Source: a virus (Duplodnaviria; Heunggongvirae; Uroviricota; Caudoviricetes). Taken from it: a DNA stretch of 14,317 nucleotides. Position 1 is the stretch's first letter. Each line of letters starts with the position of its first letter. Below the pieces are notes generated by a model. That model saw only the letters and a list, made by a program, of their open reading frames with translations. It made no database searches and was not told the origin of the DNA. Location: positions 1 to 14,317 of the IMG/VR virus record IMGVR_UViG_2648501130_000001; one strand, written 5' to 3'. Below are positions 1-14,317 of this stretch, one piece after another. A program made the translations under genes and the position numbers.

Positions 1-444
1 GACAATATAAAACCTTATTCGTCCGAGAATTCTGGCGAATCCTCTGACCTGCCAGAAAACGACCTTCCTGTGGTGAAAGCGGATGCTGCGATTCAGAACG
101 GCAGCAAGTGGGGGACAGCAGAAGACCTGACCGCCGCAGAGTGGATGTTTGACATGGTGAAGACCATCGCGCCATCAGCCAGAAAACCGAATTTTGCAGG
201 GTGGGCTAACGATATCCGTCTGATGCGTGAACGTGATGGACGTAACCACCGCGACATGTGTGTACTGTTCCGCTGGGCCTGCCAGGACAACTTCTGGTCC
301 GGTAACGTGCTGAGTCCGGCCAAACTCCGCGACAAGTGGACCCAGCTCGAAATCAACCGAAACAAGCAACAGGCTGGCGTGACAGCCGGCAAACCAAAAC
401 TCGACCTGACGAACACTGACTGGATTTACGGGGTGGATTTATGA
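1..444 (+). CDS. O: Replication initiator protein O, C-terminal portion (5' end lies upstream of the window)
   Basis: Frame 1 is open from base 1 to the stop at 442-444. Translation (DNIKPYSSENSGESSDLPENDLPVVKADAAIQNGSKWGTAEDLTAAEWMFDMVKTIAPSARKPNFAGWANDIRLMRERDGRNHRDMCVLFRWACQ...DWIYGVDL) matches my recollection of the lambda O C-terminal (P-interacting) domain almost residue for residue. Stop overlaps the P start (ATGA). Confidence 0.9.
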   Translation, partial: DNIKPYSSENSGESSDLPENDLPVVKADAAIQNGSKWGTAEDLTAAEWMFDMVKTIAPSARKPNFAGWANDIRLMRERDGRNHRDMCVLFRWACQDNFWSGNVLSPAKLRDKWTQLEINRNKQQAGVTAGKPKLDLTNTDWIYGVDL

Positions 445-1142
445 AAAACATCGCCGCACAGATGGTTAACTTTGACCGTGAGCAGATGTGCCGGATCGCC
501 AATAACATGCCGGAACAGTACGACGAAAAGCCGCAGGTACAGCAGGTAGCGCAGATAATCAACGGTGTATTCAGCCAGTTACTGGCAACTTTCCCAGCGA
601 GCCTGGCTAACCGGGACCAGAACGAACTGAACGAAATCCGCCGCCAGTGGGTGCTGGCTTTTCGGGAAAACGGGATCACCACAATGGAACAGGTTAACGC
701 TGGAATGCGCGTAGCCCGTCGGCAGAATCGACCATTCCTGCCATCACCCGGGCAGTTTGTTGCATGGTGCCGGGAAGAAGCATCCGTTATCGCCGGACTG
801 CCAAACGTCAGCGAGCTGGTTGATATGGTTTACGAGTATTGCCGGAAGCGAGGCCTGTATCCGGATGCGGAGTCTTATCCGTGGAAATCAAACGCGCACT
901 ACTGGCTGGTTACCAACCTGTATCAGAACATGCGGGCCAATGCGCTTACTGATGCGGAATTACGCCGTAAGGCCGCAGATGAGCTTGTCCATATGACTGC
1001 GAGAATTAACCGTGGTGAGGCGATCCCTGAACCAGTAAAACAACTTCCTGTCATGGGCGGTAGACCTCTAAATCGTGCACAGGCTCTGGCGAAGATTGCA
1101 GAAATCAAAGCTAAGTTCGGACTGAAAGGAGCCAGTGTATGA
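441..1142 (+). CDS. P: Replication protein P (DnaB helicase loader)
   Basis: 233-aa ORF MKNIAAQMVNFDREQM...KAKFGLKGASV, essentially identical in length and sequence to lambda P as I recall it. ATG overlaps the O stop; its own stop overlaps the ren start. Confidence 0.92.
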   Translation: MKNIAAQMVNFDREQMCRIANNMPEQYDEKPQVQQVAQIINGVFSQLLATFPASLANRDQNELNEIRRQWVLAFRENGITTMEQVNAGMRVARRQNRPFLPSPGQFVAWCREEASVIAGLPNVSELVDMVYEYCRKRGLYPDAESYPWKSNAHYWLVTNLYQNMRANALTDAELRRKAADELVHMTARINRGEAIPEPVKQLPVMGGRPLNRAQALAKIAEIKAKFGLKGASV

Positions 1143-1432
1143 CGGGAAAAGAAGCAATTATTCATTACCTGGGGACGCATAAGAGCTTCTGTGCGCAGGA
1201 CGTTGCTGCGGTAACAGGCGCAACAGTAACCAGCATAAACCAGGCTGCGGCTAAAATGGCGCGGACAGGAATCTTAGTTATTGATGGTAAGGTCTGGCGA
1301 ACGGTGTATTACCGGTTCGCTACCAGGGAAGAACGGGAAGGAAAGGTGAGCACGAATCTGATTTTCAAGGAGTGTCGCCAGAGTGCCGCGATGAAGCGGG
1401 TGTTGGCATTTTATCGCGGCAATTTTCAATAG
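1139..1432 (+). CDS. ren: Ren protein (lambda ren-like)
   Basis: 97-aa ORF MTGKEAIIHYLGTHKSFCAQDVAAVTGATVTSINQAAAKMAR... matches remembered lambda Ren (96 aa) in size, sequence and position directly after P. Confidence 0.85.
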   Translation: MTGKEAIIHYLGTHKSFCAQDVAAVTGATVTSINQAAAKMARTGILVIDGKVWRTVYYRFATREEREGKVSTNLIFKECRQSAAMKRVLAFYRGNFQ

Positions 1433-1468
1433 ACTATGTACATAAAAATATCATTTTTTAATACATGT

Positions 1469-1675
1469 CTAATTATTGGACGAAATTGGTTTTTGCTTTG
1501 GTTTAGTTAGCCTAGCAATCAAGCCAGAGGCAATAATGATGATCCAAGCAATTTGATGCAATGCTACTCCAATATAAGAACCTTTATAGATAATAAAGGC
1601 ATAGATCGCTAGAAACGAAATAAATATCCATAACGAAAGTTGATAAATTTTGGCGCGCATATTTAATCCAATCAA
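1469..1675 (-). CDS. Small hydrophobic membrane protein (two predicted TM helices), function unknown
   Basis: 68-aa ORF on the minus strand in an AT-rich segment, with two long hydrophobic stretches (LSLWIFISFLAIYAFIIY and IAWIIIIASGLIA) and a basic C-terminus. No recognised family, so coding status is uncertain. Confidence 0.4.
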   Translation of the reverse strand: MIGLNMRAKIYQLSLWIFISFLAIYAFIIYKGSYIGVALHQIAWIIIIASGLIARLTKPKQKPISSNN

Positions 1676-1916
1676 TCAGAAAGACGAGTAATCATAGAGG
1701 TACTATCACCCGGGTAACTATTGCTATTATGAACGGATAGGATAGAGGCTTCAATAACATATGCATCAAGTATGATGGAATATGTAGATGAAAATGACTT
1801 GTGTCAAATTTGTGGAAATGAGTACCATGTTTCTCTGAAATTGATGTCGTTAATGGCTAGTGATAGTGAACTTTTTTACTTTATAATTCCTTTGGTTATA
1901 ACAATAAGGTAAATTT

Positions 1917-2477
1917 ATGAAGAAGATAATATTATTAGCCATGATTATTGGTTCTTTAACAGGTTGCGCTAGTGTGCCACCATTGAATTTTTCAACACCT
2001 AACGTGGGAGTTAGCCAGAAAAAAATAGATGCTGAAATTAAGTCATTAACGGTATCACTTGCTCGTCCAGATGAGCAGAAAGGGGATATCACTGCTGGTA
2101 TGGAGGCTATAACTCCAATTTGGCGTGAATCTTTGCAGGAAGCACTCGACCGAATGACTATTTTTCGTGATAGTTCACCAAATACGGTTAGCTTAAATGT
2201 TAAAGTGTTGGCTCTTGACGTTCCTGCTTTTGGTGTTTCAATGACAACTAAAGCAATTGCAAGGTATGAAATAATCAACCGTGCGAATGGTGATATTATA
2301 TATACGCAGGATATTGAGTCTACCGGTACTGTTCCAGCCAGTTACGCATTCTACGGTATTGTTCGAGCACGCGAATCTGTTAATCGCGCGGTGCAAAACA
2401 ACATAACGCAGTTCTTGCAAGCATTAGAAAGTGTTGATCTTTCTCGTCCAATGTTTCCTGTTAGGGTAGCTAAATGA
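1917..2477 (+). CDS. Lipoprotein of unknown function (cargo gene)
   Basis: 186-aa ORF with a classic signal peptide and lipobox (MKKIILLAMIIGSLTG-C at Cys17). AAGG Shine-Dalgarno about 8 nt upstream. Stop overlaps the next ORF start (ATGA), suggesting an operon. AT-rich, unlike the flanking lambda DNA. Confidence 0.6.
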   Translation: MKKIILLAMIIGSLTGCASVPPLNFSTPNVGVSQKKIDAEIKSLTVSLARPDEQKGDITAGMEAITPIWRESLQEALDRMTIFRDSSPNTVSLNVKVLALDVPAFGVSMTTKAIARYEIINRANGDIIYTQDIESTGTVPASYAFYGIVRARESVNRAVQNNITQFLQALESVDLSRPMFPVRVAK

Positions 2478-2926
2478 AGCGATTATTCGTAATTGCTCCA
2501 CTCTTAGTGTTGGTTGGATGCGCACAAAATATATCGCCAAATAGTTATTCTGTTGGCTCTGTGGGCATGGTTAATCGAACTATCGCTGGTACAGTTATTA
2601 GTGCCAGGGGGGTTGATATCAGTGGGACTTCCGCGTTAGGCGGGACTGCTGGGGCTGCCGTGGGGGCAACCGCTGGTTCTGCGCTTGGTGGGGGAGTTCG
2701 TTCTAATATCGTTGGTGCCGTTGGTGGTGCAGTCATTGGTGGTATTGCCGGGGCAGCAATCGAATCTTCAGCAACAAAACAAACAGGCATGGAATATGTT
2801 GTCGAAACTGAGAATGGGAATTTAATGACCATTGTTCAAGGCAAAGATCCGTTATTTACTCAAGGAAGTAAGGTCCTTGTTTTATACGGAAACCCTTCTC
2901 GCATAATAACAGACCCGCGTCACTAA
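2474..2926 (+). CDS. Glycine-zipper lipoprotein (SlyB/YMGG-like outer-membrane lipoprotein family)
   Basis: 150-aa ORF with signal peptide and lipobox (LLVLVG-C at Cys16) followed by a long Gly/Ala-rich GxxxG-type stretch (GGTAGAAVGATAGSALGGGV...GAVGGAVIGGIAGAAIE) typical of glycine-zipper lipoproteins. Translationally coupled to the upstream lipoprotein. Confidence 0.65.
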   Translation: MKRLFVIAPLLVLVGCAQNISPNSYSVGSVGMVNRTIAGTVISARGVDISGTSALGGTAGAAVGATAGSALGGGVRSNIVGAVGGAVIGGIAGAAIESSATKQTGMEYVVETENGNLMTIVQGKDPLFTQGSKVLVLYGNPSRIITDPRH

Positions 2927-2966
2927 CATACCTTTTGATTTTGTAAAATCAATTCGTAATAATAAA

Positions 2967-2995
2967 GTCATCGGAGCTTGAACAACTCCGGTGAC
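2967..2995 (+). terminator. Stem-loop downstream of the lipoprotein operon (possible weak terminator)
   Basis: gtcatcggag (2967-2976) pairs with ctccggtgac (2986-2995) as a 10-bp stem with one G-U pair and a 9-nt loop. The following T tract is short (tt), so terminator activity is uncertain. Confidence 0.25.
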
Positions 2996-3116
2996 TTCTG
3001 CGCTAAACGGGGACGTTTATGCGCACATACAATCCAAACTCTCTTCTCCCTTCACAGATGCAGAAATGCACCTGCGATTTTTTGCATCCTGCGTTTGACC
3101 TCTGCGGAGGTGAAGC

Positions 3117-3572
3117 GTGAACCTACCACAAGATGGCATCAAATTACATCGCGGCAACTTCACCGCTATCGGCCAGCAGATCCAGCCTTATCTGGAGGAC
3201 GGAAAATGCTTTCGCATGGTGCTTAAACCGTGGCGTGAGAAACGCAGTCTTTCCCAGAATGCACTCAGCCACATGTGGTACAGCGAAATCAGTGAATACC
3301 TTATCAGCAGGGGGAAATCGTTCGCTACCGCAGCATGGGTAAAAGAAGCTCTCAAACACACATACCTCGGTTATGAAACCAAAGAACTGGTTGATGTCGT
3401 AACCGGTGAAATCACCACTATCCAGTCGTTACGCCATACCTCCGATCTTGATGCCGGAGAGATGTATGTCTTCCTGTGTAAGGTTGAAGCCTGGGCGATG
3501 AATATTGGCTGCCACCTGACTATTCCGCAGAGCTGCGAGTTCCAGCTGCTGCGCGACAAGCAGGAGGCGTAA
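3117..3572 (+). CDS. ybcN: YbcN-family protein (DLP12-type nin-region protein, reported DNA base-flipping protein)
   Basis: 151-aa ORF with GTG start, [58 protein letters not shown]..., closely matching my recollection of E. coli DLP12 YbcN (151 aa). GGAGG Shine-Dalgarno immediately upstream. Confidence 0.85.
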
Positions 3573-3742
3573 TGGCTACACCGCTTATTCGTGTCATGAA
3601 CGGACACATCTACAGAGTACCAAATCGTCGTAAGCGTAAACCTGAGCTGAAGCCATCCGAAATACCAACACTGCTCGGATATACCGCCAGCCTGGTTGAT
3701 AAAAAATGGTTGCGACTGGCAGCAAGGAGGAATCATGGCTGA
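3572..3742 (+). CDS. ninE: NinE-family small protein
   Basis: 56-aa ORF (below the ORF-track cutoff) found by manual translation: [59 protein letters not shown] overlaps the ybcN stop (TAATG); matches remembered NinE. Confidence 0.7.
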   Translation: MATPLIRVMNGHIYRVPNRRKRKPELKPSEIPTLLGYTASLVDKKWLRLAARRNHG

Positions 3743-4025
3743 TTTGAGAAAAGCAGCGCGTGGTCGGGAATGCCAGGTAAGAACCCCTGGCGTATGTAAT
3801 GGCAACCCTGAAACGTCTGTACTGGCACATATCCGGCTGACTGGATTGTGCGGCACCGGTACCAAACCGCCAGACCTGATTGCCACCATTGCATGTTCTG
3901 CCTGCCACGACGAAATCGACCGCCGCACACATTTTGTCGATGCCGCATATGCAAAAGAATGCGCGCTGGAAGGTATGGCGAGAACGCAGGTTATCTGGAT
4001 GAAAGAGGGGGTAATCAAGGCGTGA
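3735..4025 (+). CDS. ybcO: YbcO-family protein (DUF1364, Cys-rich putative metal-binding nuclease)
   Basis: The ORF track starts at 3696, but the internal ATG at 3735 gives a 96-aa protein ([64 protein letters not shown]...) matching remembered DLP12 YbcO. AAGGAGG Shine-Dalgarno at 3724-3730; start overlaps the ninE stop. Confidence 0.8.
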
Positions 4026-4384
4026 ATACCTACAACATCACATTACCCTGGCCTCCGAGCAATAATCGCTATTACCGCCATAATCGCGGGCGCACGCACG
4101 TCAGCGCAGAGGGGCAGGCATACCGCGATAACGTCGCCCGAATCATTAAAAACGCAATGCTGGATATCGGCCTGGCTATGCCTGTGAAAATCCGCATTGA
4201 GTGCCACATGCCGGATCGCCGTCGCCGTGACCTGGATAATCTGCAAAAAGCCGCTTTTGACGCACTCACTAAAGCAGGTTTCTGGCTGGATGATGCTCAG
4301 GTCGTTGATTACCGCGTTGTGAAGATGCCTGTTACCAAAGGTGGGAGGCTGGAACTGACCATCACCGAAATGGGGAATGAATGA
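4022..4384 (+). CDS. rusA: Holliday junction resolvase RusA
   Basis: GTG start at 4022 overlapping the ybcO stop. 120-aa product [47 protein letters not shown]...[11 protein letters not shown] matches remembered E. coli RusA nearly residue for residue. The longer ORF-track version (from 3848) is an in-frame upstream extension. Confidence 0.9.
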
Positions 4385-4521
4385 TGTTTGAGTTTTATAT
4401 GGCAGAACTTCTTCGCCACCGCTGGGGGCATCTGCGCTTATATCGTTTCCCCGGTTCTGTTTTGACCGATTACCGAATACTGAAGAATTACGCCAAAACC
4501 CTGACAGGAGCAGGAGTATGA
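4381..4521 (+). CDS. ylcG: YlcG-family small protein
   Basis: 46-aa ORF found manually ([46 protein letters not shown]), start overlapping the rusA stop. Matches remembered DLP12 YlcG in sequence and position. Confidence 0.55.
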
Positions 4522-4534
4522 AGTCAGAGATAAC

Positions 4535-4563
4535 AATCAACTAATACTGTTTTGTTGATTTTT
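4535..4563 (+). terminator. Weak AT-rich hairpin upstream of Q (possible tR-type terminator)
   Basis: aatcaac (4535-4541) pairs with gttgatt (4554-4560) as a 7-bp stem with a 12-nt loop, followed by ttt. Lambdoid phages carry terminators upstream of Q that N-type antitermination reads through. The stem is weak. Confidence 0.25.
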
Positions 4564-4606
4564 GCTTGTGATTGGCGTTCTGGTCTGATTTTTGTGGAGT
4601 AAGTTG

Positions 4607-4984
4607 ATGCGTGATATTCAGATGGTTCTTGAGCGTTGGGGAGCGTGGGCGGCTAATAATCATGAAGATGTGACTTGGTCGTCCATTGCCGCCGGTTTTA
4701 AGGGATTAATTCCTTCAAAAGTAAAATCTCGCCCGCAATGTTGTGACGATGATGCGATGATCATTTGCGGGTGCATGGCCCGTCTGAAAAAGAACAACAG
4801 CGATTTGCATGATTTATTGGTGGACTATTATGTCGGCGGCATGACTTTTATGGCGCTTGCACGTAAGCATGGGCGATCTGATTGTTGGGTTGGCAGGATG
4901 CTTCAGAAAGCTGAGGGCGTAGTGGAGGGTATGCTGATGGTGTTGGATCTCCGATTGGAGATGGATGCTGATTGTTCGAAATAA
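4607..4984 (+). CDS. quuD: Late-gene antiterminator Q (short QuuD-type Q family)
   Basis: The ORF track uses a TTG at 4592; the ATG at 4607 gives [76 protein letters not shown]..., matching my recollection of DLP12 QuuD (about 127 aa). It sits in the canonical Q position after the nin region and before a strong terminator. Confidence 0.8.
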
Positions 4985-5082
4985 TTAAAGGAAAAGTTGC
5001 TGTCTGATTGTCATTAGTCTAACATTTTAAATGTTGGAATCACAACGTAGTTATTATCATATAACAGCTTGTTTCCTGATTT
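4985..5082 (+). promoter_or_regulatory. Putative late promoter (pR'-like) and Q-utilisation region
   Basis: Positional inference only: in lambdoid phages pR' and qut lie directly downstream of Q and upstream of tR'. The AT-rich segment contains -10-like hexamers (tattat/tatcat at 5052-5060) and -35-like ttggaa (5034-5039), but spacing is not canonical and I cannot place the start site. Confidence 0.3.
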
Positions 5083-5111
5083 AGCCAGCCTCCCCAAAGG
5101 CTGGTTTTTTT
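5083..5111 (+). terminator. Rho-independent terminator (tR'-like) downstream of Q
   Basis: GC-rich hairpin: agccagcc (5083-5090), 8-nt loop tccccaaa, ggctggtt (5099-5106; last two pairs G-U/A-U), running into a 7-T tract (5105-5111). Classic intrinsic terminator geometry on the + strand. Confidence 0.65.
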
Positions 5112-5139
5112 CTAATAAGTATTATTTCGGGTAGGGATT

Positions 5140-5664
5140 TTATTGTTTAACCCATAATAATTCATTGACATTGAATCCCAACTTTTGAGCGGTTCGCACA
5201 TAGTCTGCTTTTACTTTATCTGGAATAGTTGGGGTCCTTGCCAGAATCCATAGGTATTCTCTGTTCGGACCACTGACAAGAGCATACTTATACTCATCAT
5301 CCAGTTTGATTACATTATAGCCACCATAGAAGGGGCCAAAAAACGAAACCTTCAATGCTGCAGTTTTAGTATCTCCAGTAAAGTATGCTTTACCTTCGCT
5401 CTCGCTCCATTTATTTTTCGTTGGATCGTATCCACGGTTAAGTACACGAATCCCTCCGTCGTTCCGTTTTCCATAAGTAGCGCTGACCTGTTCCAGACCA
5501 CGTTCGAACCGGTTCTCGAGGCGAGCTATTTCATACCATTTTCCGAGGTAGCGGTTGGCGTCAAAATTTGTAATCGGCTGCACACCTTTAGGTGGTGTCG
5601 GGGCCTTACATGCTATAAGAGTGAAAGAGAGTGCAATGCCAGTCAACACAGGCCATAACTTCAT
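5140..5664 (-). CDS. blc: Outer-membrane lipocalin (Blc family) lipoprotein
   Basis: 174-aa ORF with signal peptide and lipobox (TLIA-C at Cys19) and the lipocalin motif NFDANRYLGKWYEIARLENRFERGLE. Aligns along its length with remembered E. coli Blc but is clearly divergent, i.e. a paralogue rather than the chromosomal blc. Confidence 0.85.
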   Translation of the reverse strand: MKLWPVLTGIALSFTLIACKAPTPPKGVQPITNFDANRYLGKWYEIARLENRFERGLEQVSATYGKRNDGGIRVLNRGYDPTKNKWSESEGKAYFTGDTKTAALKVSFFGPFYGGYNVIKLDDEYKYALVSGPNREYLWILARTPTIPDKVKADYVRTAQKLGFNVNELLWVKQ

Positions 5665-5856
5665 AATAAATCCTGTACTTTTGATAGTTGAGAGTAAGTA
5701 TGAAAGATAGATGATTACGACCGATCACTTAAAGAACTTTCATACTATATTAGGAATAGTCCATAACAGAAAAATTGTCAGTGATGACGCCAGAAAGGCA
5801 ATTTATTCCGTGCACTACACAGTTTATGTGTTAATGAATTAGTCAAGGGGGAGAAT

Positions 5857-6816
5857 ATGATAAAAAAACCTGTGATTGGAATCAGCGGTTGTTTGGCCGG
5901 TTCTGCTGTTCGTTTTGATGGTGGTCACAAAAGAGCTGACTTTTTAATGGACAAATTAGTGGAATGGGTAACATTCAGACCAGTATGTCCGGAAATGGCT
6001 ATAGGGCTGCCAGTTCCGCGTCCTGCTCTACGTCTTGTGCGCTCGATGCAAGGAAATATACGGATGTGTTTCAGCCACGACCAGAATGAGGATGTGACAG
6101 AGAGAATGACAGAGTTTAGTCGTTCTTATATGGACAAATTAAAGGATGTATCGGGGTTTGTGGTTTGTGCTAAATCTCCCAGCTGTGGCATGGAGCGCGT
6201 GCGTGTCTATGATGAAAATGGTAATCGAGGTCGTAAAGATGGAGTGGGACTATTTACGAGCACTTTGATGGAAAAGTTTTCCTGGCTACCGGTTGAAGAG
6301 GATGGGCGATTACATGATCCAGTGCTTCGTGAGAATTTTGTTGAAAGAGTTTTTGCTTTGCATGAGCTCAATCACCTTTACAAGGAGAAATTATCAAGAA
6401 GAGAGTTATTAGCTTTTCATAGTCGTTATAAGCTTCAGTTGTTGGCGCATAGTCAGGCAGGCTATAAAGATATGGGACCATTTGTGGCTGCAATACACGA
6501 GTGGGCGGACCTTGAATCATACTTTGAGGTGTATCGTGATAAGCTGATGGCGATTCTCAGAAAACCTGCATCACGTAAAAATCACACGAATGTGCTGATG
6601 CATATACAGGGGTATTTTAGTAACTACTTAAGTACACGCCAGCGTAAAGAGTTGAGCGAGGTTATACTTAACTATCGTTCTGGCACATTACCTCTTCTTG
6701 CGCCGTTGACTCTGCTGAAGCATTATCTGGGTGAGTATCCTAATGATTACTTGCTTACACAAAATTACTTCGATCCCTATCCGGACGAACTGGCTCTAAG
6801 ACTGATGGTAAATTAA
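5857..6816 (+). CDS. DUF523/DUF1722 two-domain protein (YbgA-like; TudS-type Fe-S domain plus DUF1722)
   Basis: 319-aa ORF. N-terminus (KKPVIGISGCLAGSAVRFDGGHK...RPVCPEMAIGLPVPRP...CAKSPSCGMERV) has the conserved Cys pattern I associate with DUF523/TudS; the C-terminal half resembles the DUF1722 part of E. coli YbgA. GGGGAG Shine-Dalgarno upstream. Confidence 0.8.
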   Translation: MIKKPVIGISGCLAGSAVRFDGGHKRADFLMDKLVEWVTFRPVCPEMAIGLPVPRPALRLVRSMQGNIRMCFSHDQNEDVTERMTEFSRSYMDKLKDVSGFVVCAKSPSCGMERVRVYDENGNRGRKDGVGLFTSTLMEKFSWLPVEEDGRLHDPVLRENFVERVFALHELNHLYKEKLSRRELLAFHSRYKLQLLAHSQAGYKDMGPFVAAIHEWADLESYFEVYRDKLMAILRKPASRKNHTNVLMHIQGYFSNYLSTRQRKELSEVILNYRSGTLPLLAPLTLLKHYLGEYPNDYLLTQNYFDPYPDELALRLMVN

Positions 6817-7310
6817 TTGTATGCGATATCATCCAAAAGGATGAGTTCCTGCATGCAGGATATTTACAATCGTAAAAACTACACTATGATACCCAGAGTG
6901 TCAGTTTGTATAAAAACTCTGTTTACGCTGAAGAAACAATTGAGATGCAACTTAAAGTTGGTAAACATGCCAGTCAAAATATATGATATTATGATTCCAC
7001 GCAGCTATATATAATATAACAGATTGGTTTAATAATTTGTCTTTGTGAGTTAAATACATAATTTTATACTTGTGATGTAATGAAATTTTCCTTATTGTTG
7101 AACTGGCGAATATTGATTTTCCACCTACACTTACCTGGTGTAACCCCAATGATATCAGGTGGATAATATGCCATACATATGTTCTATCATTTTGGTGTTG
7201 AATTCGTTTGATGTCCGAATTGGTAAAGAAGATATTTTGTTTAAAAAAGGAAGTGCTGTTCTCATTGATTACAATTTAAAAGATTTTTTTCATCAAATAT
7301 AGATCATGTA

Positions 7311-7898
7311 ATGATCGTAGATGTTGAAGAAAAAACAGTTAATGATTTCTTTAAAAGCAACACACTCTCACCTTTTTCTGTAAGAAGGTTTTATCCGGCA
7401 TACTTGATGGTGGAATGTGAAGATTTTTCATTGTTAAAGAACTTGATTGCATGCTTGAATTGTGATGGCAGAACTGTGGATTTTGTTAGAAATCAAATAT
7501 CACTTGCATGTCTTGCTATCTTATCTTCAGAGAAAATAGTGCAAAGTTTTTTATTTGGATGTCTTAATAGTTTAGGAAGTAAAGTTAAGGCTATTATTCA
7601 CACGGATATATCTGCAGCATGGAGACTTTGTGATATATCTTCAAGACTGTATCTGAGTGAAAGTCTGTTAAAAAGAAAATTAAAGCACGAAGGCTTATCA
7701 TTTAGTAAGTTAATTCTTGAAGAGCGAATGGTGATGGCGGAAAGGTTATTAAGCTACAATTTATATTCTGTTGGAAAAGTTGCTGAGATATGCGGTTATG
7801 AAAACACGTCATATTTTGTAAGTGTTTTCAGAAGGTATTTTGGTGTTCCTCCCCATCAATATTCATCAAGATTTTTTTTAGAAAAAGACATGATGTAA
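7311..7898 (+). CDS. Short AraC/XylS-family transcriptional regulator (AppY/GadX-like HTH domain)
   Basis: 195-aa ORF with the C-terminal AraC-type double HTH signature (...VGKVAEICGYENTSYFVSVFRRYFGVPPHQY). An in-frame stop at 7266-7268 caps the N-terminus, so the sensing domain is only about 100 aa. Very AT-rich. Confidence 0.7.
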   Translation: MIVDVEEKTVNDFFKSNTLSPFSVRRFYPAYLMVECEDFSLLKNLIACLNCDGRTVDFVRNQISLACLAILSSEKIVQSFLFGCLNSLGSKVKAIIHTDISAAWRLCDISSRLYLSESLLKRKLKHEGLSFSKLILEERMVMAERLLSYNLYSVGKVAEICGYENTSYFVSVFRRYFGVPPHQYSSRFFLEKDMM

Positions 7899-8085
7899 CG
7901 TGATGCGTTTTAATGATTTTGTAATTTTCGTATTTGATAATTGTATGATGCTTTCAGCTACGCCAGAATAATCGCGGCGTTTTTCTTTTTGAATAGATGT
8001 TCAAGCCTTACGCTAATGTAACTTCTATACCTTTCCTCTTCGTTCCGAACCGTGTACACCATCCGTTATTTGCGGAGGTGAGGCT

Positions 8086-8301
8086 ATGAAATCCATGGAT
8101 AAGTTAACAACGGGCATTGCCTACGGCACCTCCGCAGGCAGTGCTGGCTACTGGTTTTTACAGCTGCTCGATAAAGTCACGCCCTCACAGTGGGCAGCAA
8201 TAGGTGTGCTGGGTAGCTTGGTATTTGGCCTGCTGACGTACCTGACAAACCTTTATTTCAAGATTAAAGAAGATAAGCGCAAGGCTGCGAGAGGTGAATA
8301 A
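8086..8301 (+). CDS. essD: Holin (class II / phage 21 S-type, pinholin-like)
   Basis: 71-aa [74 protein letters not shown] with two TM segments and a charged C-terminus. Matches remembered DLP12 EssD / phage 21 S holin; start of the lysis cassette. Confidence 0.85.
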
Positions 8302-8798
8302 TGCCTCCATCATTACGAAAAGCCGTTGCTGCTGCTATTGGTGGCGGAGCAATTGCTATAGCATCAGTGTTAATCACTGGCCCAAGTGGTAACGATGGTC
8401 TGGAAGGTGTCAGCTACATACCATACAAAGATATCGTTGGCGTATGGACTGTATGTCACGGGCATACAGGAAAAGACATCATTCCCGGTAAAACGTATAC
8501 CGAAGCAGAATGCAAAGCCCTCCTGAATAAAGACCTTGCCACGGTAGCCAGACAAATTAACCCGTACATCAAAGTCGATATACCGGAAACAACGCGCGGC
8601 GCTCTTTACTCGTTCGTCTATAACGTGGGCGCAGGCAATTTCAGAACATCCGCTCTTCTTCGCAAAATAAACCAGGGCGATATCAAGGGCGCATGTGACC
8701 AGCTACGTCGCTGGGCATACGCTGGCGGTAAGCAATGGAAAGGCCTGATGACTCGTCGTGAGATTGAGCGTGAGGTCTGTTTGTGGGGGCAACAATGA
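8301..8798 (+). CDS. rrrD: SAR endolysin (T4-lysozyme-type muramidase with N-terminal signal-anchor-release domain)
   Basis: 165-aa ORF starting at the holin stop (TAATG). Gly/Ala-rich weakly hydrophobic N-terminus ([20 protein letters not shown]) typical of SAR domains, followed by the E-8aa-D-5aa-T catalytic motif ([16 protein letters not shown]). Matches remembered RrrD / phage 21 R. Confidence 0.9.
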
Positions 8799-9262
8799 GC
8801 AGGGTAACCGCGATTATCTCCGCTCTGGTTATCTGCATCATCGTCTGCCTGTCATGGGCTGTTAATCATTACCGTGATAATGCAATCGCCTACAAAGAAC
8901 AGCGCGATAACAAGGCCAGTGAACTGGAGAAGGCGAACGCCACCATTACTGACATGCAGCAGCGCCAGCGTGATGCTGATGCACTCGATGATAAATACAC
9001 GAAGGAGTTAGCTGATGCGAAAGCTGAAAATGATGCTCTTCGGCGCAAGCTTGATAATGGTGGTCGGGTGCTCGTCAAAGGAAAATGCCCTGTGCCATCC
9101 TCAGCCGAAACCTCCAGCGCCTCCGGCATGGGCAATGATGCCACCGTCGAACTCTCTCCAGTTGCTGGACGAAACGTTCTCGGTATCCGGGACGGAATTA
9201 TCCGCGACCAAACAGCACTGAGAACGCTTCAGGAATACATCAGGACGCAATGCCTTCGATGA
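8795..9262 (+). CDS. rzpD: Spanin inner-membrane subunit Rz (i-spanin)
   Basis: Start taken at the ATG overlapping the endolysin stop (ATGA); the ORF track's 8783 start adds four residues. [38 protein letters not shown]... matches the lambda Rz N-terminus, with an N-terminal TM anchor and coiled-coil-like body. Confidence 0.85.
9015..9221 (+). CDS. rzoD: Spanin outer-membrane lipoprotein subunit Rz1 (o-spanin), embedded in Rz in the +1 frame
   Basis: 68-aa ORF wholly inside Rz in another frame: [19 protein letters not shown] (lipobox) followed by a Pro-rich segment ([17 protein letters not shown]), the hallmark of Rz1. Confidence 0.8.
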
Positions 9263-9436
9263 TAGCGATAATTTTACTCATCATCCTTCACATCTGGCTC
9301 TGTAGACAGGGTGGTGCTCACTTCTGGAGTGAATCCAGATTAAACATCTCATTGCTGATGCTTGATATTGAGCATTTTGCGCGCGGTAAGGGGCTGCGTT
9401 GAGATAAGAACCAGTCATTACAAATACCAGGATTTA

Positions 9437-9460
9437 GCCTCGCATTCGCGGGGCTTTTTA
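9437..9460 (+). terminator. Rho-independent terminator downstream of the lysis cassette
   Basis: gcctcgc (9437-9443), loop attc, gcggggc (9448-9454): a 7-bp GC-rich stem with one G-U pair, followed directly by ttttt (9455-9459). Confidence 0.5.
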
Positions 9461-9753
9461 TTGCCATTACAAAAGCCACTTCCTACAGAGTGGCTTTGAT
9501 AATGGTTTATACCCTACACGGGATAACTTAACTGATATCCCTTTTAAAGGATAAAGGTATTCAAGCCTGACACATCATGCGCTGTATCGTCGCCGTATTC
9601 CCGTATTAACAGAGACCGTAGCCCGACGGGGAACTCCTTCTGCGCGAGTGTGCGGGAATAATCAAAAACGATGCACACCGGGGTTACCGGGTACACATAT
9701 TTCATCATGCCAGCGAGTCCGGTTCTGGCACGGAAGAAACCGGACGTTATGAT

Positions 9754-10164
9754 TTAGTGCGGAAATATTTGTGTAGTGTTCTGAATGTTCTCAGTAAAGA
9801 GTAATGAATTATCAAAGGTATAGTAATACCTTTTGTTTTCGTGGATATTTGTAATCCATCTGAAAACCCCTGCTGTAGCAAGATTTTTCCTGTATTCGTA
9901 AAATGATAACTCTCCTGATTTGAATCCTTTTAAGGTGGCTTCTATAAGGCATTTATTTTTTGAAAATCTTACATTTACAACCTTACCCTGTCCTTTTATT
10001 AAAACCGTATTATCGTTTTCAAGAACAAGATGAATATTCTCTGTAGCTAAATAGTAAATGTAATGTGAGACATTGTGACGTTTTAGTTCAGAATAAAACC
10101 AGTGATAGTTTAAATTATTTCGCACTTTATCGAATATTTGTTTAAAAATGGCAACCTGAGCCAT
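9754..10164 (-). CDS. ybcV: YbcV-family protein (DUF1398)
   Basis: Minus-strand ORF; I prefer the start at 10164 ([45 protein letters not shown]...) because it matches remembered DLP12 YbcV (about 136 aa). The ORF-track start at 10179 adds MEGTT. Confidence 0.75.
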
Positions 10165-10220
10165 TGTAGTACCTTCCATGTGATATGAGGGGCGTAGTCT
10201 GCACGATTATCTAAATTGCT

Positions 10221-10454
10221 TCAATCTGGTCTGATCTGTTTTCTGAGCAATTCAGTAATGTCACTCTTTTCTTTGTTTGCTTCAGGAGAAACTCTTTTTT
10301 CTGAGCACAGTCTCCGGCGGCAGGCTTCAATGACCCAGGCTGAGAAATTCCCGGACCCTTTTTGATCAAGAGCGATGTTAATTTGTTCAATCATTTGGTT
10401 AGGAAAGCGGATGTTGCGGATTGTTGTTCTGCGGGTTCTGTTCTTCGTTGACAT
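10221..10454 (-). CDS. ylcI: YlcI-like small protein (DUF3950)
   Basis: 77-aa minus-strand ORF MSTKNRTRRTTIRNIRFPNQMIEQINIALDQKGSGNFSAWVIEACRRRL..., matching my recollection of DLP12 YlcI over about the first 50 residues. It lies in DNA that otherwise matches the right end of the lambda genome. Confidence 0.65.
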   Translation of the reverse strand: MSTKNRTRRTTIRNIRFPNQMIEQINIALDQKGSGNFSAWVIEACRRRLCSEKRVSPEANKEKSDITELLRKQIRPD

Positions 10455-10653
10455 GAGGTTGTCCCGTATTTAGTGTCGCTGATTTGTATTGTCTGAAGTT
10501 GTTTTTACGTTAAGTTGATGCAGATCAATTAATATGATACCTGCGTCATAATTGATTATTTGACGTGGTTTGATGGCGTAGATGCACGTTGTGACATGCA
10601 GATGATAATTATTATCATTTTGCGGGTCCTTTCCGGCGATCCGACAGGTTACG

Positions 10654-10665
10654 GGGCGGCGACCT
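10654..10665. other. cos site: cosN cohesive-end sequence GGGCGGCGACCT, with cosQ-side DNA upstream and cosB up to the Nu1 start
   Basis: ccgacaggttacg|GGGCGGCGACCT|ctcgggttttcgctatttatgaaaattttccggtttaagg reproduces the lambda right end, the 12-nt cohesive end and the left end as I remember them, with a few substitutions. The cosB inverted repeat (aggaaacgacag ... ctgtcgtttcct, about 10766-10825) is also present. Confidence 0.85.
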
Positions 10666-10842
10666 CTCGGGTTTTCGCTATTTATGAAAATTTTCCGGTT
10701 TAAGGCATTTCCGTTCTTCTTCGTCGTAACTTAATGTTTTTATTTAAAACACCCCCTGAAAAGAAAGGAAACGACAGGTGCTGAAAACGGGCTTTTTGGC
10801 CTCTGTCGTTTCCTTTCTCTGTTTTTGTCCGTGGAATGAACA

Positions 10843-11403
10843 ATGGAAGTCAACAAAAAGCAGCTGGCTGACATTTTCGGCGCGAGTATCCGTACCATTC
10901 AGAACTGGCAGGAGCAGGGAATGCCCGTTCTGCGGGGTGGTGGGAAGGGTAATGAGGTGCTTTATGATTCTGCCGCCGTCATAAAATGGTATGCCGAAAG
11001 GGATGCTGAAATTGAGAACGAAAAGCTGCGCCGGGAAGTTGAAGAACTGCGGCAGGCCAGCGAGACAGATCTCCAGCCAGGGACTATTGAGTACGAACGC
11101 CATCGACTTACGCGTGCGCAGGCCGACGCACAGGAGCTGAAAAATGCCAGAGACTCCGCTGAAGTGGTGGAAACCGCATTCTGTACTTTCGTGCTGTCGC
11201 GGATCGCAGGTGAAATTGCCAGTATTCTCGACGGGATCCCCCTGTCGGTGCAGCGGCGTTTTCCGGAACTGGAAAACCGACATGTTGATTTCCTGAAACG
11301 GGATATCATCAAAGCCATGAACAAAGCAGCCGCGCTGGATGAACTGATAAAGCGCAGGCGCTCACTATCAACAAGGATGAGGTTAACTCAACAGTTGATT
11401 TAA
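10843..11403 (+). CDS. nohD: Terminase small subunit Nu1, C-terminally truncated at a deletion junction (NohD-like)
   Basis: MEVNKKQLADIFGASIRTIQNWQEQGMPVLRGGGKGNEVLYDSAAVIKWYAERD...KAMNKAAALDELI matches lambda Nu1 up to about residue 169; the final 17 residues (KRRRSLSTRMRLTQQLI) are unrelated, so lambda homology breaks near base 11349. No terminase large subunit gene follows. Confidence 0.85.
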   Translation: MEVNKKQLADIFGASIRTIQNWQEQGMPVLRGGGKGNEVLYDSAAVIKWYAERDAEIENEKLRREVEELRQASETDLQPGTIEYERHRLTRAQADAQELKNARDSAEVVETAFCTFVLSRIAGEIASILDGIPLSVQRRFPELENRHVDFLKRDIIKAMNKAAALDELIKRRRSLSTRMRLTQQLI

Positions 11404-12056
11404 CCCTTACAAAACAATCAGGGACTGGCAATCGTTTTGTTTTACAGAACTCAGGTAATGCAGAACTACCGTTTTCTGTCAGGGTGTGGGGTTCCAGTAC
11501 TCGACAAAACGTTTTTGAGGTTGGAACGTCTGCTGCGTATCTGTTTTATGCGCAAAAAACGTCAGCAGGCCAGTTGTTTGATGTAAATGGCGCTATTAAT
11601 TGCACAACGCTGAATCAGTCATCAGACCGCGACCTTAAAGACGATATTCTCGTTATCAGCGACGCGACGAAAGCAATCCGTAAAATGAACGGGTACACCT
11701 ACACGCTCAAGGAAAACGGAATGCCTTATGCTGGCGTTATTGCACAGGAAGTAATGGAGGCGATACCTGAAGCTGTGGGATCGTTTACTCATTATGGTGA
11801 AGAGTTGCAAGGTCCGACCGTTGACGGCAACGAGCTACGCGAAGAAACTCGCTATCTTAATGTTGACTACTCCGCCGTGACGGGGTTACTTGTTCAGGTC
11901 GCCCGTGAAACAGATGATCGCGTTACCGCGCTGGAAGAGGAAAATACAACGTTACGTGAAAATCTGGCAACAGCAGGCACCCGGATCACCACTCTGGAAA
12001 ATCAGGTAAGCGAACTGGTTGCACTTGTCGGGCAGTTAACAGGAAGCGAACATTGA
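11343..12056 (+). pseudogene. Tail-fibre C-terminal fragment with intramolecular-chaperone (peptidase S74-like) domain; no 5' part or start context
   Basis: Frame 0 is open from the stop at 11340-11342 to the TGA at 12054-12056. The translation contains the autoproteolytic chaperone signature as I recall it (LNQSSDRDLKDDILVISDATKAIRKMNGYTYTLKENGMPYAGVIAQEVMEAIPEAV), preceded by fibre-like sequence. The ORF-track version starts at a GTG (11484). Confidence 0.6.
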
Positions 12057-12239
12057 TATCCTTCAAGCCCTGAAGGAGGCTGTTCCTGGTACGTTCAGAC
12101 TGTTGTTGAGCTGGAAATCGCAACGGAGGAAGAAACCTTGTTGCTGGAAGTCTGGAAGAAGTATCGGGTGTTGCTGAACCGTGTTGATACATCAACTGCA
12201 CCTGATATTGAGTGGCCTACGAACCCTGTCAGGGAGTAA
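12057..12239 (+). pseudogene. Tail-fibre assembly protein (Tfa) 3' fragment, in frame directly after the tail-fibre fragment stop
   Basis: The same reading frame continues after the TGA at 12054-12056 as [60 protein letters not shown], the conserved C-terminus of lambda-type Tfa proteins. No start codon or N-terminal Tfa sequence. Confidence 0.6.
12111..12239 (+). repeat. Direct repeat copy A (about 129 nt, tfa 3' end); partner at 13160-13288
   Basis: ctggaaatcgcaacggaggaagaaaccttgttgctggaagtctggaagaagtatcgggtgttgctgaaccgtgtt... aligns colinearly with 13160-13288, roughly 85-90% identical over the first 105 nt and diverging near the 3' end. Confidence 0.8.
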
Positions 12240-12293
12240 TCATTGGGATTATGCCGCAGCACGTCTTAAGCAAGAGCGAGCTGCGGTTGGATG

Positions 12294-12962
12294 CTATTTT
12301 TTCCCTGAAGCGGAAAACATTACTACAGTACCTTGAACCTTGGTTTTAACATTCTCGAAATGCTCTGAGAGTATATGTGTTAAGCCTTCTTCGGAATCTT
12401 TTGTGTTTGAAAAGATGCCTTTCTGATTGTAAATGCGCATCAGTTTTTGACCGAAGCTATTGTGCACAACTCCATCGCCAAGAATTGTGGCTCCGTATAG
12501 AGTTCCATCGTCAGTTAAGGCCTGCGCCGCATTGCGTATTACACAGCTTTTTGTAGATATATTTCCAGGCAGGCAGTGAAGAAGGTAAAACATGGAAATG
12601 GAATCAAATTGACCATGTAACGCCGCGGGATAAGGTTCAAAAACATCATGGCTAATTTTATGTTTAATTTTTGATTCCCCAGCCCTTGTAGATGCCGCGT
12701 TCAGGCTAGCTTCGTTCAAATCCATTAAAGATATCAGACTACTCTCAGGTACGTGAGTAAGGTAAAACCCAGTTCCAACACCAATATCCAGATGGTTGTT
12801 ACCTAAATGTTCCAGAAAGTGTGGAAGAAGGTGTTCCTTTGTAGGACATCCCCATGCAAGCCGATTTGATACTCCCAAAACCCACCAGTCATAAAGCTTT
12901 AGGGTAAGTGGTGTGTAAATTTTAGCCCCATCATCTGTGTTTTTTTTCATTAATTTCACCAT
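12294..12962 (-). CDS. ybcY: Class I SAM-dependent methyltransferase (YbcY-like), apparently intact
   Basis: 222-aa minus-strand ORF with Rossmann-fold methyltransferase motif I (HLDIGVGTGFYL). Resembles the DLP12 ybcY product, which I recall as a disrupted gene in E. coli K-12; here the frame is open throughout. Alternative start at 12950 (MKKNT...). Confidence 0.75.
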   Translation of the reverse strand: MVKLMKKNTDDGAKIYTPLTLKLYDWWVLGVSNRLAWGCPTKEHLLPHFLEHLGNNHLDIGVGTGFYLTHVPESSLISLMDLNEASLNAASTRAGESKIKHKISHDVFEPYPAALHGQFDSISMFYLLHCLPGNISTKSCVIRNAAQALTDDGTLYGATILGDGVVHNSFGQKLMRIYNQKGIFSNTKDSEEGLTHILSEHFENVKTKVQGTVVMFSASGKK

Positions 12963-13105
12963 GTTATAGTTTTGTTTGTGAATTAAATCAATTATGGTGA
13001 TGAATTACAAGGGGTTAAATGCTGCCGCAGCATAGCGATATTGAAATAGCCTGGTATGCTTCGATACAGCAGGAGCCGAATGGCTGGAAGACCGTCACCA
13101 CATAG

Positions 13106-13288
13106 TTCTACATCCAGGAATTCAGTGAGCATATTGCGCCACTTCAGGATGCTGTAGATCTGGAGATCGCAACGGAGGAAGAAAACTCGTTGCTGGAAGC
13201 CTGGAAGAAGTATCGGGTGTTGCTGAACCGTGTTAATACAACAACTGCACCGGATATTGAATGGCCAACAGTACCCATTATCGAATAG
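13106..13288 (+). pseudogene. Tail-fibre assembly protein (Tfa) C-terminal remnant (tfaX-like)
   Basis: After an in-frame TAG at 13103-13105 the frame reads [60 protein letters not shown] with no Met, a typical Tfa C-terminus. A short upstream ORF (ATG at 13019, 28 aa) may be a further fragment of the same degraded gene. Confidence 0.6.
13160..13288 (+). repeat. Direct repeat copy B (tfa 3' end); partner at 12111-12239
   Basis: See copy A. Same orientation, with the methyltransferase gene between the copies on the opposite strand. Confidence 0.8.
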
Positions 13289-13297
13289 TGCATTACG

Positions 13298-13334
13298 AAC
13301 TGCAGGATATTATATGGGATAATATTCTGCAGTT
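13298..13334. repeat. 16-bp inverted repeat with 5-nt spacer between the tfa remnant and the convergent GGDEF gene
   Basis: aactgcaggatattat (13298-13313), loop atggg, ataatattctgcagtt (13319-13334): 15 Watson-Crick pairs plus one G-T. No clean T tract follows on either strand, so it is either a bidirectional terminator-like hairpin or a protein-binding palindrome. Confidence 0.7.
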
Positions 13335-13361
13335 TATTGGGGCTGTATTTTAAAAAGGTGT

Positions 13362-14234
13362 TTATTTTGAGTGAATTATCACCTTGTTTTTTCCGGTTCT
13401 TTTGGCTTGATATAACGCTTTATCGGCATTGACTAACATTTCAGATGGGCTGAGATTATTCTCTTTTGAAGTAAAGCAACCAATACTGACAGTTATTTTC
13501 TCAGGTCCATGCGATAATAATTTTTCCGAGCATTGCTCTTCAATGTTTTTTCTGATTCGCTCTGCAATTGATAGCAAGAGCTTTTGAGTATTACCTTTAA
13601 TGATAATACCGAACTCCTCACCGCCTAAGCGCCCTAATACATCCTCTTTCCTGATGGATTTTTTTATTATTCTGGTAACCATTACTATGACTTGATCACC
13701 CATATGATGCCCCCATTTGTCATTGATGCTTTTGAAACTGTCAATATCTAACATTATTACTGAGAAATCATGGTGTTTTGATATATTCTTCAATGAGTCA
13801 ATAAAGTATCTTCTATTGTATGTATTCGTTAGTGGATCATGAATTGCCATATGATTAGCATGATTTAATTTCCTGAAAACATAATACATGAGTGTTGAAA
13901 TGATATAAATCATTGATATCAATTCAAGAAATTTTGTCATATACCATGCAGGATGGGATTTATCAATAAAATACAATAAAATTAGATTATTGCATACTGA
14001 CACTATACTAATAAGTATTATACACAACCATATTTTTGAGTAATTACGTATGCTGATGCATGAGCTGATAAGTAATACAAGCCAAAATACTGATATTATT
14101 TTGGTGTACACGATATTCCACGTCGGCAAATGACGATTCAGCGAGTATTGTATAATATTAAGACTATATTTTATATTGTCACTGCTTAGATTTTTTGCTA
14201 CAAACGGAGTAATAAAAAGAATTAATATTGACAA
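13362..14234 (-). CDS. Membrane-anchored GGDEF-domain diguanylate cyclase (intact GGEEF active site and RxxD I-site)
   Basis: 290-aa minus-strand ORF with an N-terminal half of several hydrophobic helices and a C-terminal GGDEF domain (HDPLTNTYNRRYF...IMLDIDSFKSINDKWGHHMGD...IRKEDVLGRLGGEEFGIII): RKED lies five residues before GGEEF. Strongly AT-rich. The true N-terminus may lie upstream of the annotated Met. Confidence 0.85.
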   Translation of the reverse strand: MSILILFITPFVAKNLSSDNIKYSLNIIQYSLNRHLPTWNIVYTKIISVFWLVLLISSCISIRNYSKIWLCIILISIVSVCNNLILLYFIDKSHPAWYMTKFLELISMIYIISTLMYYVFRKLNHANHMAIHDPLTNTYNRRYFIDSLKNISKHHDFSVIMLDIDSFKSINDKWGHHMGDQVIVMVTRIIKKSIRKEDVLGRLGGEEFGIIIKGNTQKLLLSIAERIRKNIEEQCSEKLLSHGPEKITVSIGCFTSKENNLSPSEMLVNADKALYQAKRTGKNKVIIHSK

Positions 14235-14317
14235 AACAACAATTATTATGTTTCTTTTATCTTCTAAAACACTTTTATTTTTAACATTGGTGGAATAAAC
14301 AGCCAGAAAGATTATAG

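Follow-up and report, generated by a model that had tools for sequence, protein, structure and literature searches.

A probable RudS-type tRNA 4-thiouridine desulfidase gene between Q and the holin gene of a defective lambdoid Escherichia coli prophage

We analyzed a 14,317-nucleotide (nt) stretch of viral DNA (Caudoviricetes; IMG/VR record IMGVR_UViG_2648501130_000001, positions 1 to 14,317), hereafter the window, and in particular one of its genes, rudS, which codes for a protein combining a TudS (DUF523) and a DUF1722 domain. A defective lambdoid prophage has integrated at att-lambda, with ybhC on one side and ybhB/bioA on the other, and the window is its right half. The prophage is present, for instance, in the genome of E. 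coli NZ_CP033401, from which the gene order can be read. The left part includes int-xis, exo-bet-gam-kil and the genes for a HipA-family kinase and a DUF3037 protein. These are followed by the gene for a cI-like S24 repressor, cro, O, P, ren, ybcN, ninE, ybcO, rusA, ylcG and Q. After Q come blc (on the reverse strand), rudS, an AraC-like gene, essD, rrrD, Rz and Nu1/nohD. To the right of Nu1 there are only tail-fibre fragments and genes for a methyltransferase and a GGDEF diguanylate cyclase, while the head and tail genes are absent. Coordinates of the features are collected in Table 1.

Table 1. Features of the rudS locus (coordinates refer to the window)
Feature	Position	Strand	Basis or remarks
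rudS coding sequence	5857-6816	+	319 aa and stop, ATG start; intact ORF; product 93% identical to assayed RudS_vir
Shine-Dalgarno sequence AAGGGGGAG	5845-5853	+	Read from the sequence; ends 3 nt 5' of the rudS ATG; strong
TudS/DUF523 catalytic domain of the rudS product	5875-6303	+	Residues 7-149; Pfam match and invariant residues
DUF1722 domain of the rudS product	6430-6783	+	Residues 192-309; Pfam match and invariant columns; 49% identity to YbgA
Q-family late antiterminator gene	4607-4984	+	125 aa, QuuD-like; Pfam PF06530, E 2.2e-51
Q-to-holin cargo ('moron') slot	4985-8075		Comparison with DLP12
Intrinsic terminator	5083-5113	+	9-bp G+C-rich stem and U7, 99 nt past the Q stop; -14.9 kcal/mol, z -3.9
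Blc-subfamily outer-membrane lipocalin gene	5140-5664	-	NCBIfam PRK10477, 316 bits (cut-off 267); Pfam Lipocalin_2
AraC-family (YdeO/GadX-like) regulator gene	7168-7898	+	Between rudS and the holin gene; frameshifted in the window
P21-type holin gene essD	8086-8301	+	Lysis cassette (8086-9262)
Lysozyme gene rrrD	8301-8798	+	Lysis cassette
Rz-like gene	8795-9262	+	Lysis cassette

The region between Q and the holin gene was delineated by comparison with prophage DLP12. The two prophages are similar up to the end of Q and again from the essD ribosome-binding site onward. Because the similarity breaks off there, and because DLP12 has the nmpC porin gene in its place, we consider the interval to be the cargo slot, with flanks common to both prophages. 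In Shiga toxin (Stx) phages, stx sits in this same lambdoid slot. The cargo of the window is of a different kind, consisting of a putative tRNA-modification eraser, a lipocalin and an AraC-like regulator rather than a toxin or a porin. Like other late-operon cargo, rudS lies between Q, with its terminator, and the holin gene, and has the same orientation. A preliminary description, made from the sequence alone, had put the gene in a prophage just upstream of the lysis genes. The prophage setting holds, with Q upstream and the holin, lysozyme and Rz genes downstream; 'just upstream' is roughly right, as the holin gene is 1.27 kb downstream and an AraC-like pseudogene lies between.

Both domains of the rudS product were identified with high statistical significance. 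Pfam family PF04463 (2-thiouracil desulfurase, formerly DUF523) matches the N-terminal half with an E-value of 4.5e-40 (137.4 bits, cut-off 34.7) and PF08349 (DUF1722) matches the C-terminal half with an E-value of 5.8e-41 (139.9 bits, cut-off 22.5). These scores are far above the gathering scores and bear out the domain assignment of the preliminary description. Thus, a single polypeptide carries an N-terminal TudS/DUF523 and a C-terminal DUF1722 domain, the architecture that defines RudS. The Prokaryotic Genome Annotation Pipeline (PGAP) labels the product 'YbgA family protein', which is a loose family name, and in PHROGs it belongs to phrog_3275, listed as function unknown.

Proteins with the DUF523-DUF1722 fusion have been named RudS and characterized as [4Fe-4S] desulfidases that convert 4-thiouridine (s4U) of tRNA to uridine (Jamontas et al., NAR 2024, PMC11417400). 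When overexpressed, RudS proteins reduced s4U in E. coli tRNA 4.7- to 26-fold, and the three cluster cysteines were required (PMC11417400). The six RudS proteins assayed include RudS_vir, that is, gp66 of Escherichia phage 1H12, with cluster cysteines at positions 12, 44 and 110 (PMC11417400). All RudS proteins including RudS_vir lowered tRNA s4U, whereas stand-alone TudS did not; free thiouracils were poor RudS substrates, and none of the RudS proteins gave TudS-like growth on thiouracils (PMC11417400). The DUF1722 domain is the tRNA-binding half and holds the tRNA anticodon arm (PMC11417400).

The window protein aligns with RudS_vir (YP_009909557) without gaps and is identical to it at 298 of the 319 positions (93%). 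The two proteins have the same length and the same three cysteines, and none of the 21 amino-acid changes falls on a catalytic or other functional position. The neighbours of the gene in 1H12 (Q, reverse-strand blc, the AraC-like gene and the holin gene) are also those of the window. However, 1H12 is a complete lambda-like phage, while the window copy resides in a defective prophage at att-lambda. The preliminary description had treated the protein as uncharacterised and had emphasized activity on thiouracil bases. Neither point stands: the fusion was characterized in 2024 as a tRNA s4U desulfidase for which free thiouracils are poor substrates, and the 93%-identical phage orthologue has been assayed (PMC11417400). 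Its hedged guess that the protein acts on tRNA thiolation matches the published function (PMC11417400), while our analysis gave no support to its other ideas, a connection with DNA repair or with modified-base phages.

Most of the residues important for RudS function are conserved in the window protein. Predicted ligands of the [4Fe-4S] cluster are Cys12 (codon 5890-5892), Cys44 (5986-5988) and Cys110 (6184-6186). The numbering is the same as that of RudS_vir and RudS_ST in Table 1 of PMC11417400, and in a PDB sequence search Cys12 and Cys44 align with Cys10 and Cys43 of TudS. All three cysteines, the pattern noticed in the preliminary description as typical of the DUF523 family, are invariant in 24 enterobacterial homologues (70-76% identity). 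Glu46, Arg55, Ser107 and Ser109 occupy the catalytic positions and are also invariant in this set. Their spacing is characteristic: Glu and Arg follow the second cysteine by 2 and 11 residues, respectively, and the two Ser precede the third cysteine by 3 and 1 residues. Arg19, Phe20, Ser239 and Arg240 are likewise invariant. To relate these positions to Pseudomonas putida RudS_KT (PP_0741), which has been dissected both biochemically and by mutagenesis, we used offsets from the cysteines listed in Table 1 of PMC11417400 rather than a sequence alignment. By this mapping, Glu46, Arg55, Ser107 and Ser109 correspond to Glu51, Arg60, Ser111 and Ser113 of RudS_KT, and the putative tRNA-binding positions Arg19, Phe20, Ser239 and Arg240 to Arg24, Tyr25, Ser243 and Arg244. 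Mutation of these eight RudS_KT residues abolished or lowered activity, and the Tyr25Phe change kept full activity (PMC11417400). RudS_KT has the same two-domain design as the window protein; it differs in a further tRNA-binding residue, Asn26, the equivalent of which by the same mapping is Asp21 in the window protein and in the whole enterobacterial group.

We also compared predicted and solved structures. A search of PDB with the AlphaFold2 model of the window protein, built from the 24 homologues, returned the TudS structures 6Z92, 6Z93, 6Z96 and 6ZW9 as the only fold matches at E<=0.001 (probability 1.00), with TM-scores of 0.67-0.69 when normalised to the target (TudS). PDB sequence searches aligned TudS with only about 60 N-terminal residues, whereas the fold search covered the whole domain. 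For the DUF1722 half, the PDB fold search found no similar solved structure.

Two better known relatives each resemble one half of the protein. Stand-alone TudS (PDB 6Z92/6Z96) shares the fold and the cluster-binding motif with the N-terminal half, yet it lacks DUF1722, acts on free 2- and 4-thiouracil and 4-thio-UMP (uridine monophosphate), and is about 26% identical to the window protein. TudS proteins are single domains of about 150-170 aa that rescue uracil auxotrophs on thiouracils, and the 319-aa fusion does not conform to this description. The other half, DUF1722, has a homologue in E. coli K-12 YbgA (b0707), with 49% identity over residues 164-315. YbgA is encoded upstream of the photolyase gene phr, and the preliminary description had correctly pointed to its location next to photolyase. 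However, YbgA has no catalytic domain and has no effect on s4U (PMC11417400). The window protein also falls outside the YbgA equivalog, a stand-alone family of about 169 aa (NCBIfam NF007549), since it scores 190.8 bits against a cut-off of 237 and only over residues 160-315. A tblastn search (E<10) of 5 kb upstream of K-12 ybgA did not reveal any remnant of a TudS domain; this region is mostly ybfD and further Rhs-associated genes, with ybgA directly after ybfD.

Taken together, the domain architecture, the 93% identity to RudS_vir and the invariance of the functional residues led us to file the window protein as RudS. Judged by its sequence, it is very probably a desulfidase that converts s4U at position 8 of tRNA (s4U8) to uridine. 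The family, the mechanism and the phage orthologue are already published, and the gene adds no new mechanism.

Chromosomal RudS proteins of Citrobacter, Salmonella, Klebsiella and Enterobacter resemble the window protein in length (319 aa) and in all functional residues (70-76% identity). RudS_ST is Salmonella STM1389/ORF319 (PMC11417400). Genomic contexts are different. Citrobacter rudS closes a SnoaL-SDR-amine oxidase-DUF1365-CFA synthase-DUF2878-DUF3833 cluster, and the prophage gene is without those neighbours. Salmonella and Enterobacter cloacae rudS are associated with MerR-family regulators (PMC11417400); the prophage copy has no such neighbour. G+C content is 43% in the prophage gene (39% at third codon positions, GC3) versus 54% in the Citrobacter gene (GC3 62%), and synonymous sites between prophage and chromosomal rudS are saturated. 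Because of both the saturation and the G+C gap, we regard the prophage lineage as old rather than recently captured. An origin of blc in the chromosomal rudS cluster was also ruled out, as the 175-aa protein of the Citrobacter cluster, a member of no known family, is dissimilar to the prophage Blc.

To see how common and how well-preserved the gene is, we examined viral contigs, complete bacterial genomes and deposited phage genomes. In 80 IMG/VR viral contigs with rudS, the gene order is nearly constant. Except at a few truncated or divergent loci, Q precedes rudS by about 1250 nt; reverse-strand blc lies about 193 nt upstream in 80 of 80, and essD is found 3' of rudS in every locus with the downstream flank recovered. 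The endolysin and the AraC-like gene are variable. Of 5426 complete E. coli genomes, 1145 (~21%) have DNA that matches the rudS region, and 982 have the whole Q-to-essD slot. Full-length RudS is encoded in 12 of 50,697 deposited phage genomes, all of them Escherichia lambdoid records. Eleven are lambda-named (1H12, Lambda_2E9 and the Lambda_ev series) and have the 93%-identical allele in common; the remaining record, that of the isolated phage IdasGreatGrand, has the same layout as the window. E. coli B REL606 was considered as the source of the hybrid allele in 1H12 and rejected: its att-lambda and DLP12 prophages are without rudS, and the DLP12 slot has nmpC.

The 319-codon frame is intact in 83 of 83 copies; at the nucleotide level these fall into 42 alleles, and at the protein level into 23 variants. 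A comparison of the two main alleles, those of the window and 1H12, gives a ratio of non-synonymous to synonymous changes per site (pN/pS) of 0.13 at 25% synonymous divergence. Since it is constrained and intact in every copy examined, rudS is a real gene and not a chance ORF. The same data bear on whether rudS might be a functionless hitch-hiker, kept by tight linkage to its Q allele and lysis cassette. Such passive retention would agree with the invariable linkage of rudS to one Q allele and with the decay of the AraC-like neighbour in the window and some other copies. However, that neighbour accumulates frameshifts and rudS does not, and with the low pN/pS and every catalytic residue kept we find this explanation hardly credible.

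We then considered how rudS might be transcribed. The intrinsic terminator past the Q stop is the sole terminator-like site in a scan of 4400-8400 on both strands, and three alleles have an unchanged stem there. Since the reverse strand lacks a U-run, the site does not represent a terminator of blc. As the site is placed like tR', upstream phage transcription should reach rudS only if antiterminated. Antiterminated late transcription should in turn read through rudS, which is co-oriented with the late operon, lies past the post-Q terminator and, in our scan, has no other terminator-like site between it and the holin gene. On this gene arrangement, production of Q, as after prophage induction, should lead to transcription of rudS as part of the late operon. 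A stable structure (6817-6858, + strand; -20.8 kcal/mol, z -4.6) is located directly past the rudS stop with no clean U-run after it. Its sequence is not kept in the 1H12 allele, which has a different small hairpin there (TTCTC/GAGAA versus TCCTGC/GCAGGA in the window), just before a conserved TTTACA. Because of this lack of conservation we did not call it the rudS terminator; weak termination and stabilisation of the transcript are both possible roles.

The published biochemistry suggests what such a gene might do. s4U8 is the near-ultraviolet (near-UV) chromophore of bacterial tRNA, and UVA light crosslinks it to C13 (PMC11417400). The crosslink impairs aminoacylation, raises guanosine tetraphosphate (ppGpp) and causes the near-UV growth delay (PMC11417400). 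Shortening of the UVA growth delay by overexpression has been shown for Pseudomonas RudS_KT only (PMC11417400). In the mechanism that we propose, Cys12, Cys44 and Cys110 of the N-terminal TudS domain would hold the [4Fe-4S] cluster, the fourth iron of which would bind the thione sulfur of s4U8, with Glu46, Ser107, Ser109 and Arg55 assisting hydrolytic desulfuration. The C-terminal DUF1722 domain would dock on the tRNA anticodon arm. Loss of s4U would then prevent UVA-induced s4U8-C13 crosslinks, uncharged tRNA and the stringent response. Translation might thus be kept running in sunlit, UV-damaged cells, to the gain of the lysogen, of late phage protein synthesis, or of both. The timing of expression and the beneficiary are much less certain than the molecular identity.

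A number of observations weigh against parts of this interpretation. On the molecular side, confidence of the AlphaFold2 model is moderate (predicted local distance difference test, pLDDT, 69.8; predicted TM-score, pTM, 0.73). In addition, of the RudS proteins tested, RudS_vir displayed the weakest tRNA desulfidation per protein level and the shortest lag on 4-thiouracil (PMC11417400), so that it may be less strict about its substrate than other RudS enzymes. On the regulatory side, the timing of rudS expression is read from gene order only. Promoter-like matches occur at chance frequency (13 found versus 10.7 expected), and the late promoter pR' was looked for but could not be located with confidence. 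In testing for direct SOS control, we found no LexA box anywhere in the window; any link to DNA damage would therefore run through repressor cleavage and Q. Finally, as the window prophage has no head and tail genes, a benefit to the phage cannot apply to the window copy, and only a host benefit can.

An alternative is that the protein mainly salvages free thiolated pyrimidines, turning 4-thiouracil and 4-thio-UMP from RNA turnover into uracil and UMP, rather than editing tRNA. A TudS-like catalytic domain and the behaviour of RudS_vir, with its comparatively low tRNA activity and short 4-thiouracil lag, fit this possibility. We nevertheless consider it quite improbable, since TudS-like growth on thiouracils was not seen with any RudS, it was tRNA s4U that every RudS lowered and TudS left unchanged, and purifying selection acts on the DUF1722 half just as it does on the remainder of the protein.

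A different proposal shares the molecular function of RudS and departs from our reading in regulation and beneficiary only. rudS might be a pure lysogenic-conversion gene, expressed independently of Q and the lytic cycle from its own promoter within the 192 bp that separate blc and rudS (5665-5856), and aiding the bacterium against near-UV or other stress. Its maintenance under purifying selection in a prophage stripped of structural genes, the terminator separating it from Q, and the host-type cargo around it (Blc and an AraC-like protein, the gene of the latter with a conserved promoter-like site) all agree with this. On the other hand, the best promoter-like match in the intergenic region is 9/12, in keeping with the chance frequency of such matches, and the orientation of rudS with the late operon, with no terminator-like site before the holin gene in our scan, argues for read-through. 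The proposal is also compatible with late expression. We regard it as possible, if somewhat unlikely, in its pure form; a promoter in the intergenic region may still provide some transcription of rudS in the lysogen.

Returning to late expression of RudS, a more specific model would place the s4U eraser under the repressor-Q-antitermination cascade, so that s4U erasure is coupled to prophage induction. Sunlight that damages DNA would lead to cleavage of the CI-like repressor, and rudS would come on along with the late genes. s4U8 would then be stripped from host tRNA, and the brake on translation imposed by crosslinks and the stringent response would be lifted when protein synthesis is needed by the phage or, for a domesticated defective prophage, by its UV-stressed host. 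We put this model forward tentatively and think it rather unlikely to hold as stated.

Loss of s4U may have consequences other than photoprotection, and we asked whether one of these could be the actual role. Without s4U, tRNA-Tyr and tRNA-Ser might be decayed by the degradosome, which would remodel the tRNA pool; alternatively, altered tRNAs might escape anticodon nucleases or other tRNA-directed defences. Overexpressed RudS_KT halved the abundance of tRNA-Ser and tRNA-Tyr (PMC11417400), and Vibrio cholerae lacking s4U shows degradosome-mediated tRNA decay (cited literature). Yet the effect on E. coli tRNA levels is modest, and Rfam and tRNA scans found no RNA family or tRNA gene in or near rudS and no tRNA genes in the window. 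Moreover, no PADLOC model matches the RudS, Blc or AraC-like protein, and no data tie s4U to any defence system. A role of this kind is thus highly improbable.

The neighbouring cargo genes have properties of their own. blc is co-resident cargo divergent from rudS (head-to-head). Its pN/pS between alleles is 0.07, and in PHROGs the lipocalin is phrog_2809, function unknown. G+C content of blc, like that of rudS, is ~43-44%, and that of the AraC-like gene is 31%. The frameshift in the latter lies at a T-run (7284-7290). The gene is intact (243 aa) in phage 1H12 and in most IMG/VR copies, and it is truncated in several others. A promoter-like site upstream of it (6863-6890, TTTACA-16-TATGAT, 10/12 matches) is kept in four alleles despite the diverged spacer around it. 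The AraC-like protein may resemble prophage-encoded PsrA, PsrB and PatE, regulators of acid resistance and of the locus of enterocyte effacement (LEE) in enterohaemorrhagic E. coli (EHEC).

Additional genes are present elsewhere in the prophage. At its right end, among the tail-fibre fragments, there are a class I S-adenosylmethionine (SAM)-dependent methyltransferase gene (12294-12962, - strand) and, by ybhB, a MASE4-GGDEF diguanylate cyclase gene (13362-14234, - strand); both appear to be further cargo. Between them lies the only Rfam match of the window, IS009 (13042-13245, + strand; 129.9 bits, gathering score 117). RudS residues are fused to a GGDEF domain in P0002 (403 aa), a protein with a single database record, probably as the result of a rearrangement or an assembly artefact. 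Two overlapping ORFs between ren and ybcN (1917-2477 and 2474-2926, both + strand) are annotated in RefSeq as hypothetical; one has no Pfam family and the other only a sub-threshold glycine-zipper match. The genes for the HipA-family kinase and the DUF3037 protein adjoin the S24 repressor gene (1-1073 of L001 and 1738-3311 of L090, left of the window). The pair occupies the place of lambda rexAB and is possible toxin or abortive-infection cargo.

Both the 2024 study (PMC11417400) and a 2026 review state that E. coli lacks RudS. Our survey contradicts this statement, as about one-fifth of the complete E. coli genomes match the rudS region and the copies examined are intact. In the literature that we searched, we did not find reports of the prevalence of rudS in E. 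coli, of its position in the late-operon slot or of a role for it in temperate phages. With rudS in about one-fifth of E. coli, tRNA s4U levels and the near-UV growth delay may differ among strains according to their prophage content. The phage annotation (PHROG 3275, 'unknown function') could now be named RudS, and the question why a temperate phage would keep the gene of a tRNA-modification eraser among its late genes is easily testable. If the induction model were true, the control of the prophage gene would be a phage-borne counterpart of the light-inducible MerR/LitR control of chromosomal rudS, and near-UV growth delay would be a strain-variable, prophage-determined trait in about one-fifth of E. 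coli.

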